Source: a bacterium (GTDB taxonomy: Bacteria > UBA8248). From it: a DNA stretch of 64,000 nt. Location: assembly GCA_965203325.1 (NCBI GenBank), contig OZ241875.1:3296001-3360000 (forward strand), read 5' to 3'. Under the pieces are notes generated by a model, which did no database searches, had not been told where the DNA came from, and saw nothing but the letters and a program-made list of their open reading frames with translations. The position numbers were made by a program, and so were the translations under genes. Positions 8,862-41,243 of this stretch are shown here, piece after piece (position 1 is the stretch's first letter; the number at the start of each line of letters is the position of its first letter).

Positions 8862-9083
8862 ATGGCATTCGGACTCAACAGAGCGGAACTGATCGGGCGT
8901 CTCGGCGCCGACGCCGACATCAACCACCTGACCAGCGGCGGTCGCGTCGCGAACCTGTCCATCGCAACTGACGAGGGCTACATCGACAAGCAGAGCGGCG
9001 AGCGGGTGGACAAGACCGAGTGGCACCGGGTCGTCACCTTCCAGCCCGGGCTGGTCGATATGTTCGAGAAACATATTTTATAA
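8862..9083 (+). pseudogene. ssb: ssb 5' half, interrupted at attL
   Basis: LNRAELIGRLGAD...KTEWHRVVTFQPGLVDMFEKH, then AT-rich sequence and a stop; the matching 3' half is at 40995-41243. Confidence 0.93.
9060..9070 (+). repeat. attL core
   Basis: ATATGT-TCGAGAA-ACATAT: a 6-bp inverted repeat flanking a 7-bp spacer. Confidence 0.88.
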
Positions 9084-9263
9084 AGACCGACAATGTTACC
9101 TTTGCATCCTACCGGAACGACAATACTCCCAATATTTCATCGAGTTACAAGCATATCCGTATCGCCGTTCACCGACATTCCTCCTTTCTCCTACCCTGCG
9201 GTTTGTTTTTATGTGTTGATATTTGTGTTGCTATTATTGATTCACGCTGCTATAGTCCGGGAC

Positions 9264-10490
9264 ATGGAAAACAACACCGGAAAACGCATCGCCAGGGTCA
9301 GGACGACACTCACGAAGCGCACCGTCGAGGCGCTCAAGCCCGAAGAAAAATCATGGATCGCCTGGGACGAGAAGCTGACGGGATTCGGTGTCCGCGTCCA
9401 GCCCTCGGGCACCAAGTCGTTCATCGTCAACTACCGCGCGGGCTCGGGCGGCCGCAAGGCGCCCAACAAGCGGGTGGTCATCGGACGCTACGGCCGCATC
9501 GCTCCCGACCGGGCCCGGCGTCTGGCCCAGGATATGCTCGGACGCGTCGCTCGGGGGGAAGACCCCGCCAGTGAGCGGGCAGACGCCCGGGGCGTCCCCA
9601 TCCTGGCCCGGGCCTTCGAGGTCTACATGGCGGCGAACCCCGGCCGCGCGGAAAATACCGTCAGGCTCTACCGGCAGAACCTGCGGGTCAACCTCTCCGA
9701 CTGGCTCAAGCGCCCGCTCGACGCCATCACCCGACAGGACGTGGAGGACCGTTTCAATCTCATTACAGGCAAACACGGCTGGTCGGCGGCCAACCAGACG
9801 CTCTCGATGCTGCGCTCGATCTACCGCCGGCCCTGCGTCGATTTCGAGGGATTGCGCAATCCGGTCGACCTGTGGCTGGCGGCCGGCGGGCGCTTCCACC
9901 GGAAGCGGAGGCGGCGGATTTCGAGCCCGGCAGAGGTGCTGCCCCGCTGGCGTAGGGGCATCGAGGCCGTGGATATTGAGCCTGAGATTCGCGACATCTT
10001 TCTGATCGGGGTCTACACCGGCATGCGCCGGGGCGAGATCGTATCCCTGCGCCGGGAGCAGGTGGACATGGAGCGGCGCATCCTGAGGGTCGAGGAGACG
10101 AAGACCGGTGAGCCCCTGGAGCTTCCGATCACACGGCAGATCGCCGACATCCTCGAGCGGCGCCTCGCGGATGGCGAGGACCCATGGGTGTTTCCGTCCC
10201 CGAGGAGTGGGGCCGGACACGTGGCGGACCTTGCGCGTTTCTATGGGGAGATTTCCGAAAAAGGAGGAACCCGGTTCTGGTTCCACGGGCTGCGCAACGC
10301 CTTCATCACGGTGGCGGAGCGCGAACTGATGCTGCCGCGTTCGCTCACGAAGCGGCTGGTGAACCACGCCCGGCCCCAGGACGTGACCGAAGGCTACGCC
10401 GCCGACTGGAGCGTCGAGCAGCTGCGCGAACCCGCGCAGCGCATCGCTGATCGTATCGACCAACTGATGGGAGTGGCGCTGCCAGCATGA
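9264..10490 (+). CDS. int: tyrosine integrase with N-terminal arm-binding domain
   Basis: WDEKLTGFGVRVQPSGTKSFIVNYR arm domain; catalytic TGMRRGE, K (TKTG), HGLR, VNH and TEGY. Confidence 0.95.
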   Translation: MENNTGKRIARVRTTLTKRTVEALKPEEKSWIAWDEKLTGFGVRVQPSGTKSFIVNYRAGSGGRKAPNKRVVIGRYGRIAPDRARRLAQDMLGRVARGEDPASERADARGVPILARAFEVYMAANPGRAENTVRLYRQNLRVNLSDWLKRPLDAITRQDVEDRFNLITGKHGWSAANQTLSMLRSIYRRPCVDFEGLRNPVDLWLAAGGRFHRKRRRRISSPAEVLPRWRRGIEAVDIEPEIRDIFLIGVYTGMRRGEIVSLRREQVDMERRILRVEETKTGEPLELPITRQIADILERRLADGEDPWVFPSPRSGAGHVADLARFYGEISEKGGTRFWFHGLRNAFITVAERELMLPRSLTKRLVNHARPQDVTEGYAADWSVEQLREPAQRIADRIDQLMGVALPA

Positions 10491-10782
10491 GCTTCACCCC
10501 ATGTCCGGGTCTGCCGCCCCAGTAGTGCACAATTGCGCATGTCTCCATTGCAACCAGGCAACGCGGCCGCGACGCCGGAAAATCCAATACCTTCGCACTG
10601 GCCGACTTCTTCCTGAACGCGACCGTTCCGTCCGGGCCCGCGCCGTGGAGTTGAAAGCCCTGTTTCGCCAGATTGTTGCCGATAATGTGAACCTGTTCCA
10701 TGAGAGTGTTCCTCCTGGAGGGTGTATACGAAACCACCTTGCCACAGTGTGATACTGCTGGGAGGGGGAGTCCACACTATCG
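10490..10782 (-). pseudogene. IS110-family remnant (left end plus truncated transposase N-terminus)
   Basis: MEQVHIIGNNLAKQGFQLHG...LVAMETC..VHYW resembles the DEDD N-terminus (GxDLAK degenerate); upstream GTGTGGACTCCCCCTCC end motif. Confidence 0.8.
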
Positions 10783-10975
10783 TTTACGGAGTCGCAATTC
10801 TGTCGTCTGCCTTCAAAATCCATCCCGCAACGACTTGCTTGTGAGCATGCTCCGGTCGCCTTCAAATTCTCTTTCAGGAACCACCAATCTGCGCCCCGAG
10901 GCGGTGACAACTCATCCCGGTCGACTCCACTTCACGCATTGGCTGATGAGTGAGTATGTGAATGTTTTTTTCAGG

Positions 10976-39231: not shown

Positions 39232-39421
39232 ACATTGATTTTTTAGGAGTTACAGTCACACCTGGTGTATGGCCGTAGTGAATCAAGCGGCACTCCTGCC
39301 CATTTCTCTTTTGCCCACTCCATCAATGAAATTCACATCGGCGACCACGTCCAGTTGACGGAAGCCGCGCAGGCGTCTTGCCCACCCGGATGAATACGTT
39401 GGTGCTGAGAAGATAACCCTC

Positions 39422-40921
39422 TCACCGCGCCTCGAAGAAGCGGCGCACGGCGTGGTCGGGACTGAACTTGCCCTCTATGGCGTCGCGCAGCCAGTCGGCC
39501 ACCATGAGGTAGAAATCGGGCAGGCGTCCGCCCATCGTGTGGGCCTCGTTCTCATATACCCAAAGCTCCCTGGGGCCGCCCAGGAGGTCGAAGAGCCGCT
39601 CGGCGTCCTCCAGCGGGCAGAGCTCGTCGAACTCGCCCATCGCCAGAAGCGTCGGACACTTGATGTCGCCCGCGATATGCTCGAGCGTCATCTGCTCCGC
39701 CATGGCGTCGAACTCGTCCTCGTCGTGGATGTTGGACATGTACTGGTAATTCGCGCGGTAGGCGGGTTTCCCGCCCTTGAAGATGGAGTCTTTCTGGAGA
39801 TACACGCCCATCGCGCCCACACAGGCTTTCAGTCGCTTATCGTGCGCCGCCACGCGCGGCCCCCAGTAGCTGCCCATGCTCCAGCCGTAGAGGCCAATCC
39901 GCTCGGCGTCCACCTCGGGGCGTGATTCGAGATAGTCGATGGCGGCGGAACCCGCTCGCTCGAAGTTGTCCAGCGTCACCCAGGTCTCGCGCGTGTTGCT
40001 CTCCCCCTGGCCGGGGCCGTCGATGCTGAGCGTGGCGAGGCCGCGCCGCCTGAAGTGGTTGTGGTAGGGATTGGGGAGAAACTCTTTGATGGTGTCCATC
40101 CCCGGCACGATGATGACGCAAGGCGCATTTTCCACCCCCGGCACCGTCTGCAAAATGCCCGGAATCGTCTTTCCGTTCTCGAAGGGAATTTCCACGCGCT
40201 CCACGGGCGCTTCGTCGAACAGATCGATGAACTTCTCGTAGCAGGCGATCATCCTGGCATACAGTTCGAGCTTTTGCGGCGTGTTCTTGTGGATGACGCC
40301 GCAGGCGGGGCCGTAATAGAGCGCTGCGCGGTGGTAGAACTCCGCCGCCGACTCAAGGTGGCCGGCGGCCTCGGCTTCTCTCGCGAGCGCTTCTTCCTGG
40401 GCGGCGGTGCGCGCCCACTCCTTGGGCACGGAGCCGGGCAACTTGATGCGCTCGGTCGTCCGCCGCACGTCGGCGGGCAGGAAGGCGGGGCACTCGACGT
40501 TCTGGCCCCGCTCGGCCACCACCTCGATTCCCTTGTCCTTGAGGAAAGTGGTGAGCCGCTCGTTCAGCCATTTTGGATACGGCGAGGCGAGCGCCACCTT
40601 TGCGATGCCCGTCCGCTCTTCGATCACCGCGATGATGTCCGCATCCATGCCCGGACGCACGAAGCTGCCGCCGGTGCAGCCGAAGCAGATGGCATCGAGA
40701 CTCGCGTGGCCCGTGAATTCCATCAGGAGGCGGAGAGCGGTGCCTGTGGTCATAACGGCTGCCGCCCCGGTCAATAGAAAAAATCGTCTGTATGCGCAGG
40801 CGGATTGTGGAGCTTGAGTCCTCCGGAGAATCGGAATATCATCGCCATGCTCTCTTGGGCGCAGACATGCAATGCCCTTTTCGTGATCAAGTTGTTGTGT
40901 TGCGATAGTGTTGACAATCAT
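39422..40921 (-). CDS. chimeric ORF: maleate isomerase/Asp-Glu racemase fragment fused to an alpha/beta hydrolase
   Basis: FGCTGGSF and ALASPY racemase motifs; PGMD, DGPGQGE, GWSMG, GEFD and EAH hydrolase motifs; real start unclear. Confidence 0.75.
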   Translation of the reverse strand: MIVNTIATQQLDHEKGIACLRPREHGDDIPILRRTQAPQSACAYRRFFLLTGAAAVMTTGTALRLLMEFTGHASLDAICFGCTGGSFVRPGMDADIIAVIEERTGIAKVALASPYPKWLNERLTTFLKDKGIEVVAERGQNVECPAFLPADVRRTTERIKLPGSVPKEWARTAAQEEALAREAEAAGHLESAAEFYHRAALYYGPACGVIHKNTPQKLELYARMIACYEKFIDLFDEAPVERVEIPFENGKTIPGILQTVPGVENAPCVIIVPGMDTIKEFLPNPYHNHFRRRGLATLSIDGPGQGESNTRETWVTLDNFERAGSAAIDYLESRPEVDAERIGLYGWSMGSYWGPRVAAHDKRLKACVGAMGVYLQKDSIFKGGKPAYRANYQYMSNIHDEDEFDAMAEQMTLEHIAGDIKCPTLLAMGEFDELCPLEDAERLFDLLGGPRELWVYENEAHTMGGRLPDFYLMVADWLRDAIEGKFSPDHAVRRFFEAR

Positions 40922-40994
40922 TATTTAATGAATTCCTTTATCAGATAAAACAAAAATTATCAGTAATTTATAAGCCTATCAAATTTGTGAATAC

Positions 40995-41005
40995 ATGTTC
41001 GAGAA
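40995..41005 (+). repeat. attR core
   Basis: ATGTTCGAGAA, identical to 9060-9070, at a sharp AT-to-GC transition. Confidence 0.88.
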
Positions 41006-41243
41006 GCACGCGAAGAAGGGACGCCTGGTCTACGTGGCCGGCAAGCTGCAGACCCGCCGCTGGAAGAAGGACGAGGAGGACTCGGATCGGTTCTCGACCG
41101 AGATCCTCATCGCCCCGGGCGGGCGCATTCAGTTCCTGGACAAGGTGAACGGGAACGGCAATGGCAACGGTAACGGCAACGGCGCGCACGCCGAGACGAC
41201 GGCGGTGGCGGCAGGCGTAGTCGGGGAAGAGATCCCGTTCTAG
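40995..41243 (+). pseudogene. ssb: ssb 3' half
   Basis: MFEKHAKKGRLVYVAGKLQTR...EEIPF, which completes 8862-9070. Confidence 0.93.

Follow-up and report, generated by a model that had tools for sequence, protein, structure and literature searches.

A CRISPR-carrying element probably inserted by its own P4-type integrase into the ssb gene of a related mobile element in a presumably sponge-associated bacterium

The 64-kb window analysed here, by which we mean the whole stretch of DNA (positions 3,296,001 to 3,360,000 of contig OZ241875.1), lies in a single 4.39-Mb contig of a genome with an estimated completeness of 95.5%, hereafter G000. It contains an ssb gene of the type carried by mobile elements, which is cut in two by a long insert. 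Our best explanation, to which we assign a probability of about 85%, is that positions 9071-41005 on the forward strand are one integrative, probably mobilizable element that belongs to the same family as the DNA around it and was inserted by its integrase into that family's ssb. Counting one copy of a duplicated core, the element measures 31,935 bp. It is bounded by the split gene, and six relatives of 31.0-43.0 kb have the same ends.

The outer ssb is interrupted at codons 70-73 (D-MFEK), with its 5′ part, codons 1-70 plus the core, at 8862-9070 and its 3′ part, 82 codons from MFEK, at 40995-41243, both on the forward strand. From 8862 the left frame resembles the family up to ...PGLVD-MFEK; beyond 9070 it enters unrelated AT-rich DNA and meets a stop at 9081-9083, inside the element. 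On the right, reading takes up again at 40995 (MFEKHAKKG...) and continues to 41243. Because the left piece matches positions 1-64 of the Pfam SSB profile and the right piece positions 62-99, the two are halves of one ssb gene. Over the first 71 residues of ten intact paralogues, the left piece shows 92-99% amino acid identity.

Both junctions carry the 11-bp core ATGTTCGAGAA, at 9060-9070 (attL) and 40995-41005 (attR) on the forward strand, and similarity to ssb ends exactly at this core on either side. These are its only two exact occurrences in the window. With up to one mismatch there are eight sites, against 1.11 expected from shuffles, and one of the eight is the homologous position in a second ssb copy within the insert. 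At attL the core lies within ATATGT-TCGAGAA-ACATAT (9058-9076), inverted half-sites around a 7-bp spacer. A previous sequence-only reading of this DNA had described the cut at MFEK, the duplicated core and this layout of attL, and each of these descriptions is confirmed, the first also by the two Pfam SSB halves. Short contigs of two public runs from one study, which may represent the source sample, bridge attL without any difference, so the junction is no artefact of this assembly. Runs that contain the attL stretch are mostly labelled sponge metagenomes.

An intact gene for a P4-like tyrosine integrase of 408 amino acids (9264-10490, forward strand) begins 193 bp inside the left junction. 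Its product has an N-terminal arm-binding domain (Arm-DNA-bind_3, PF13356, 9.1e-18; 64.6 bits against a cut-off of 27) and a Phage_integrase domain (PF00589, 1.5e-13), and residues R255, K280, H341, R344, H368 and Y378 are each kept in at least 97% of 68 aligned relatives. The list of open reading frames (ORFs) gives an earlier start at 9093, an improbable one given that the ATG at 9264 is where the homologues begin. PF13356-type P4-like integrases move many tRNA-targeting islands and integrative and conjugative elements (ICEs).

The heptamer TGTGTTG occurs at 9212, 9224 and 40896, and its variant AGTGTTG at 40907. Together they form one pair towards each end of the element, both on the forward strand: TGTGTTG-N5-TGTGTTG at 9212-9230, 142-154 bp from the core, and TGTGTTG-N4-AGTGTTG at 40896-40913, 88-99 bp from the core. 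Within the window the paired pattern is found only here (at 9213 and 40897). Of 80 homologous loci, 69 have it too, upstream of the integrase, and the right-arm pair is invariant in 7/7 aligned right ends; in that alignment, with a mean column identity of 76%, the longest invariant run, GTGTTGCnATAGTGTTGA, is the right-arm pair. The integrase just inside attL and the candidate arm sites had both been pointed out from the sequence alone, and both are found where they were placed; we regard the heptamer pairs as putative arm sites. The left pair overlaps the presumed integrase promoter, with a TATAGT box and the ATG following it, and may therefore also regulate the integrase.

Relatives of the integrase show where this recombinase family inserts. 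A scan of one genome per species returned 377 relatives, from which the best 80 were taken (66-94% identity; loci are designated by L numbers and genomes by G numbers). At ten of these loci (L001-L007, L009, L026 and L045), an ssb fragment covering residues 1 to ~73-77 ends ~190 bp upstream of the integrase, at the same junction as attL of the window. An eleventh, L008, also sits at this ssb codon, with an IS-like insert (L008:3905-5000) between the left half of ssb and the integrase. In a tree of full-length integrases, nine of the ten rows in the clade of the window, which is starred, are at the ssb codon (the window and L001-L008), the tenth, L027, being elsewhere; in the sister clade this holds for three of five (L009, L026 and L045), with L021 and L023 at other sites. 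The association of integrase homologues with split ssb genes thus extends to 11 of the best 80. As labelled, the ssb-targeting group comprises an uncultured Nitrospinaceae metagenome-assembled genome (MAG) and Alphaproteobacteria MAGs, and related integrases occur in further phyla.

Apart from three more at ssb, the remaining loci adjoin tRNA 3′ halves (the sites of sister clades within this integrase family), a GGGCGGGTTTCAAACCCGCC-type palindrome, a truncated tyrosine-integrase gene (L028) or varied chromosomal genes. ARAGORN detected no tRNA gene upstream of the integrase homologue in any of the 80 regions; the tRNA-like targets seen are 3′ halves only. The three at ssb belong to other clades of the family and adjoin the gene elsewhere: in L077 the cut follows residue 40, and L065 and L071 lie on the opposite strand near the N-terminus, which is missing. 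The palindrome adjoins 18 loci (L036, L041, L051, L052, L055, L058, L059, L061, L063, L064, L067, L068, L070, L074-L076, L079 and L080). Its clade is large, with members in Binatia, Thermodesulfobacteriota and Rhodospirillaceae MAGs, and one Binatia assembly yields up to seven near-identical copies.

Relatives were delimited by searching five of these genomes with the right junction of the window, and right ends were found on the same contig and strand. Five elements bounded by attL and attR in ssb were recovered from G001-G004 (43,027, 30,986, 31,604, 33,159 and 39,280 bp), and a sixth of ~35.6 kb from G007, for which the junctions and the inner ssb only were compared. The layout is the same in all six, with the integrase on the left and the relaxase and an inverted ssb module on the right. 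The five from G001-G004 match the window in the integrase, in the inverted ssb module and at the right end, and all but one match its relaxase region too. In the G003 element both cores carry the same variant, ATGTTTGAGAA. The G007 cores differ in their left part (ATGCTT vs ATGTTC) and share GAGAA, which places the exchange in the right-hand portion. The window has Toprim/Sbno DNA upstream of its split ssb, and G001 and G003 have another backbone type, so these insertions are independent events. The comparisons support well a site-specific integration into ssb, and the recombinase responsible would be the adjacent integrase. No matching 3′ part of ssb was found near the L005, L008 and L045 elements, which hence are not bounded. 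The L005 element (G004:C1:184001-229400; L005, L140) has no right junction, and its inner ssb carries the flank of the outer ssb 3′ half; it looks rearranged, as expected from inversion by homologous recombination of the inner and outer ssb.

These junctions also bear on whether the gene could have been split by homologous recombination or inversion between ssb paralogues, with no part played by the integrase, which we find scarcely credible. The substrates for such an event are present, as the 32.7-37.9 kb block of the insert, which contains the inverted ssb module, has 84-94% identity to the sequence flanking the split gene (inverted repeats I1-I10), and L005 seems to have been rearranged in this way. 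However, exchange between intact copies yields hybrid intact genes rather than halves abutting unrelated DNA, and it does not account for similarity that stops exactly at an 11-bp core on both sides or for the recurrence of the same junction sequences beside the integrase in other genomes.

The gene content of the insert agrees with a mobilizable element. In order, it carries the integrase, a RES/Xre pair, a cas operon, a CRISPR array, an ankyrin gene, tRNA-Leu, a TrwB remnant, TrwC, the inverted ssb block, a TPR-like gene, an alpha/beta hydrolase and the right end. The TrwC-type MOBF relaxase-helicase has 989 amino acids (28857-31826, forward strand; Pfam TrwC 1.8e-79; NCBIfam MobF 270.6 bits against a cut-off of 100). 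The coupling-protein remnant of 216 amino acids (28207-28857, forward strand) resembles only the N-terminal membrane part of the family TrwB, with 30% identity by BLASTP over 126 amino acids to residues 21-136 of the 694-residue protein; it lacks the ATPase domain and has no Pfam match. Mating-pore and coupling-ATPase families gave no Pfam match among the scanned ORFs of the element, nor was an oriT located. With a relaxase and its own att-bounded integration module, and with neither coupling ATPase nor pore genes, the guest fits the label IME (for integrative and mobilizable element) that it had been given beforehand. The inverted backbone module (32702-37900, reverse strand) contains a YspA/SLOG-like gene (33008-33958) and an intact ssb of the element's own, and is 79-92% identical in nucleotide sequence to ~10 other copies in the genome.

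In the mechanism that we propose, the P4-type integrase (9264-10490) would recombine the attachment site of the element with the site in the middle of ssb, at codons D-MFEK. The attachment site would consist of an ACATGT-TCGAGAA-ACATAT core and paired GTGTTG arm sites, at a distance of ~90-100 bp to one side and ~140-155 bp to the other. The reaction would cut ssb in two and leave the 11-bp core at both ends. Transfer would need the coupling protein and pore of a helper, and the element's own ssb would stand in for the disrupted gene.

Several observations weigh against this reading. The tree is the result of a quick search only and contains 68 integrases, as 13 of the 80 loci, with frames shorter than 380 amino acids, were excluded. 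Sites outside ssb, with ...GAA or ...AGAA before the element end ACAT, are occupied by four of the close relatives, L027, L021, L023 and L013. These look like secondary sites, and the preference for ssb that had been anticipated from the sequence is accordingly upheld for the 11 loci at this codon and not for these four. Neither an excised circle nor the empty site of this copy was found in the contigs of four runs over 7000-11000. An exact-pattern scan of metagenome contigs returned 14 stretches, namely two attL junctions and 12 unrelated chance matches, and no circle junction. A loose end at 9067 in run X2 was considered as an excision product and rejected, being an intact paralogue with a GAAAA core. 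No excisionase was recognised in the element. In G000 there is no match to the mating-pore ATPase families PF11130 (TraC_F_IV), PF03135 (CagE/TrbE/VirB4) or PF12846 (AAA_10), so that no helper is at hand, and TIGR03744 gave one match of 18 bits, far under its cut-off. Finally, the G+C content shifts at 27-28 kb from ~0.52-0.53 in the cargo to ~0.68 in the backbone, with tRNA-Leu at the switch, a mosaic that could suggest two elements.

The missing circle junction, empty site, excisionase and pore ATPases, together with a coupling protein reduced to a remnant, are what a fixed relic would show, that is, an insert that once integrated site-specifically and no longer excises or transfers in this lineage. 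Decay of this kind is seen elsewhere in the genome, where integrase relics lie beside relaxases at 1.967 and 4.262 Mb and an attR relic lies at 593.7 kb. Against this stand an intact integrase frame with conserved catalytic residues, two identical cores, and integrases 87-94% identical in other genomes with different cargo and host copies, the last of which points to recent activity of the lineage. We consider a fixed relic unlikely. The compositional mosaic raises another alternative, in which an integrase-cargo island (9071 to ~27,800) adjoins part of a second resident family element (~27,800-41,000). Such a composite is in keeping with the jump in G+C content (~0.53 to ~0.68), with tRNA-Leu at the switch and with similarity to relatives that resumes at 27,985; but the same two-part build lies between attL and attR in all six other bounded elements, the arm heptamers at the right end are conserved, and no inner boundary is marked by a core copy or a tRNA 3′ end. 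Two units therefore seem highly improbable, and a single element remains our preferred reading.

The DNA into which the element inserted is itself a mobile element, as the sequence-only reading had held. Of the mobile-element type of ssb, G000 has ten intact copies, besides the split one in the window and an isolated 3′ half at 593 kb. All ten intact paralogues read straight through the site, four with the exact core and six with ATGTTCGAAAA. The housekeeping ssb (418,814-419,122), which shares 25% identity, lacks a core at the corresponding position. The insertion target is thus an ssb specific to mobile elements, with ~11 copies in the genome. To the left, on the forward strand (1-8861), the host element encodes a strawberry-notch-type helicase (1787-6202) and a Toprim/DUF7146 protein (6601-7674), followed by the region upstream of ssb; to the right (41244-44116, forward strand) it encodes a YspA/SLOG protein (42204-43163) and a NikA-like protein (43604-44062), as annotated with Pfam, and this right part is 78-93% identical to other family copies.

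The closest counterpart of the host is a 40-kb stretch in G003, which is 92% identical to the outer DNA of the window (1-9073 and 40993-43418) and has an uninterrupted ssb. It encodes TrwB together with homologues of TraG, TraN, TrbC, TraU, TraW, S26 peptidase, TraC, TraV, a TrbI/TraB-like protein and TraK, and with this full Tra set it is an F-type conjugative element. After the pore block follow ParB-like, HATPase, strawberry-notch helicase, ssb and NikA-like genes. The counterpart of the G003 element in G000 starts only 3.8 kb left of the window and is without the pore block. Judged by its genes, the host copy would be a transfer-gene-less derivative of an F-type conjugative element. Seven TrwC relaxases, six of them on other family copies, and two TrwB coupling proteins were found in G000, which has accumulated pore-less derivatives of one conjugative family.

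The same pattern is seen around other occupied sites. TraC genes are present in G001-G004 (2, 3, 1 and 4 matches, respectively), but at none of the six occupied ssb sites examined, those of the window and of the five elements of G001-G004, was TraC found within 45 kb. Three ssb copies that do lie 12-19 kb from TraC, in G001, G002 and G003, are unoccupied and intact. The target gene thus belongs to a conjugative family, and the hosts seen are pore-less derivatives, although the cases are few and may simply reflect the larger numbers of such derivatives. The view of the guest as a hyperparasite of a helper is consequently only partly supported. Its co-transfer at an early stage, from a leading region, is a conjecture of the sequence-only reading. 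Site-specific insertion into ssb, a related mobile host and the IME character of the guest stand, and the family is F-type in G003; that the host is a conjugative helper does not, because the host copy and the six occupied sites checked have no transfer apparatus nearby.

Some further traces of the family were noted in these genomes. A second right junction in G000 (G000:C1:593409-593986; L084 ~7400-7990) consists of an element end of ~290 bp, 80% identical to that of the window, which abuts ATGTTTGAGAA and an ssb 3′ half; no matching left junction or integrase was found near this relic. Several tandem pairs of 30%-identical integrases are present in G000, one of them 15-17 kb left of the window. 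In G003, a repeat of 1.4 kb lies just downstream of ssb (G003:C1:2600273-2601644; joined L136+L137 34273-35644); two further copies are present in G000 (20.5 and 1,532.5 kb), and the repeat is 74% identical to window positions 10485-10782.

The element's own ssb (34990-35436, reverse strand; 148 amino acids) is predicted to replace the gene broken by the insertion. Its core, ATGTTCGAAAA, is one mismatch away from the att core and is shared by the two G004 elements (G004a and G004b). The corresponding core is ATGTTCGAGCG in the G001 and G002 elements, ATGCTCGAACG in the G003 element and ATGCTGACCAA in the G007 element, so that the own ssb deviates from the att core in 7/7 bounded elements, in four different ways. 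Among other intact ssb copies of the family, the exact core is kept in 15 of 32 (9 copies in G000 and 23 in G001-G005). The hypergeometric probability of 0/7 against 15/32 is 0.0225, a value that ignores the kinship of the elements. The inner ssb of L005 does have the exact core; that element has no right junction and is apparently rearranged. A divergent core in the own ssb may protect the element from inserting into itself. We treat this as a lead only, given the relatedness of the elements and a baseline in which some guests may have gone unnoticed.

From these pieces a wider picture can be sketched, which we offer tentatively and hold to be somewhat less probable than its opposite. A lineage derived from F-type elements would have given up chromosomal att sites and would now nest in the ssb of its kin, in at least two bacterial phyla in sponges, with an own ssb that compensates for the loss and is shielded by changes in its core. 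If true, this recombinase family would have a general niche in mobile-element genes (cf. L065, L071, L077 and L028). The present case also yields a testable idea, namely that an element targeting a gene that it also carries must make its own copy immune, which here would come about by the core changes.

The insert is CRISPR-armed, as had been recognised from the sequence. A complete type I-MYXAN (I-B variant) operon occupies 12784-20708 on the forward strand and comprises cas6/cmx6, cas3, cas8a1/cmx1, cas7, cas5/cmx5, a cas4-cas1 fusion and cas2, assigned with NCBIfam and Pfam. All seven cas genes score above NCBIfam curated cut-offs (TIGR02807, TIGR03485 + TIGR03486, TIGR02586, TIGR02585, TIGR03983, TIGR01587 and TIGR01573). 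The leader of the array adjoins cas2, and the array itself (20959-23277, forward strand) consists of 33 repeats (36 bp each, with a degenerate final one) separated by 32 spacers of 34-38 bp. When the 31 spacers between full repeats were compared with the whole genome and the 80 loci, only partial matches of 12-19 nt were obtained; the closest pairs spacer 8 with integrase genes and contains 13 mismatches in 36 nt. The whole array found no match in phage and plasmid collections. Positions 10,469-27,985 of the window are not shared with the five bounded elements of G001-G004; this copy therefore carries the CRISPR-Cas system, the toxin pair and the ankyrin gene as its particular cargo, and the CRISPR system is an incidental part of it.

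CRISPR-Cas systems occur on plasmids and integrative elements, and the present case resembles these in carrying a complete adaptive immune system as cargo; it differs in that no spacer target was found in the genome, the loci or the phage and plasmid collections, so that a part in conflicts among mobile elements would be conjecture. The only other cas1 gene of the genome, with an array of 39 repeats (36-bp repeat, 29-31-bp spacers), lies at G000:C1:4247388-4251160, inside another copy of the same element family, between the ssb module and the relaxase. Spacers of this second array (4.249 Mb) match nothing beyond 17 nt in the genome and the fetched loci. Both cas1 loci of the genome thus ride on one mobile-element family, which bears on how immunity genes move between sponge symbionts.

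Elements with related behaviour are known. Guedon et al. 2017 (PMC5704250) describe IMEs of Firmicutes that serine recombinases have inserted into conserved genes (Maff2-like, SNF2 and traG) of Tn5252-superfamily ICEs. There too a mobilizable element with variable cargo site-specifically disrupts a conserved gene of another transferable element, with cis-transfer as a possibility. Those IMEs differ in their serine recombinase and their Firmicutes hosts; here, the integrase is of the P4 tyrosine type, the target is ssb, the guest is kin of its host and has its own ssb, and the hosts seen lack a mating pore. Bardaji et al. 2017 (PMC5385486) describe GInt islands, which have a four-gene gin operon (ginABCD) and insert at the end or beginning of the chromosomal ssb, leaving its product unaltered. 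GInts share with our element the use of ssb as a recurrent attachment gene for tyrosine-recombinase islands, whereas here a single integrase would break the ssb of a mobile element internally, at codon 70-73 of 148, which corresponds to position 64 of the 104 in the profile.

Compared with P4-like integrases in general, the domain architecture, the catalytic residues and the arm-type repeats on both sides of an inverted-repeat core with a 7-bp spacer are alike; here, however, the target is internal to a protein-coding gene of another mobile element, and the gene is not restored. The likeness to F-type MOBF elements (mating-pair-formation type F, MPF-F) lies in the Tra set and TrwB of the G003 counterpart and in the TrwC relaxase that the guest retains, the difference in pore genes that neither guest nor host copy has kept in this genome. 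A literature search, outside which most subscription journals lay, found no account of a tyrosine-integrase element cutting a mobile-element ssb, nor of this family in sponge symbionts. Documented cases of IMEs entering conserved genes of conjugative elements have until now mainly concerned Firmicutes and IMEs with a serine recombinase. The present case extends that behaviour to P4-type tyrosine integrases, to ssb as a target and to uncultured sponge-associated bacteria, and for an integration assay it offers a core that is defined, putative arm sites and an empty site that occurs naturally.

The other genes of the insert are varied. A putative toxin-antitoxin pair occupies 10976-12183 on the reverse strand. 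Its RES toxin (10976-11569) matches Pfam RES at 1.1e-16, with 61.7 bits where the cut-off is 23.2; the Xre/ParS-like antitoxin (11566-12183) has weak matches, below curated cut-offs (24.7 vs 27.8; 24.2 vs 90). An ankyrin-repeat protein of 665 amino acids is encoded at 24551-26548 on the reverse strand (Pfam Ank_2 1.2e-140), and PADLOC, run on the unknown ORFs of the element, named only ankyrin-repeat models. At the border between low-GC cargo and high-GC backbone in the GC profile, ARAGORN places a tRNA-Leu(UAA) gene (27690-27775, reverse strand), which with its flanks is 80.6% identical to a chromosomal region at 3.90 Mb. Near the right end, an alpha/beta-hydrolase gene (39422-40921, reverse strand) is a further piece of cargo. 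The chromosome holds another copy at 2,992,304-2,993,368, to which region 39420-40484 shows 92.8% identity, and this suggests a recent capture or exchange of the gene.

Outside the insert, the right-hand cargo of the host element (44454-52371) resembles a defence islet, with PDC-S31/DUF2971, a Vsr endonuclease, HNH, a C-5 cytosine methyltransferase and a HATPase protein of 743 amino acids, the last of which has weak matches to restriction enzymes.

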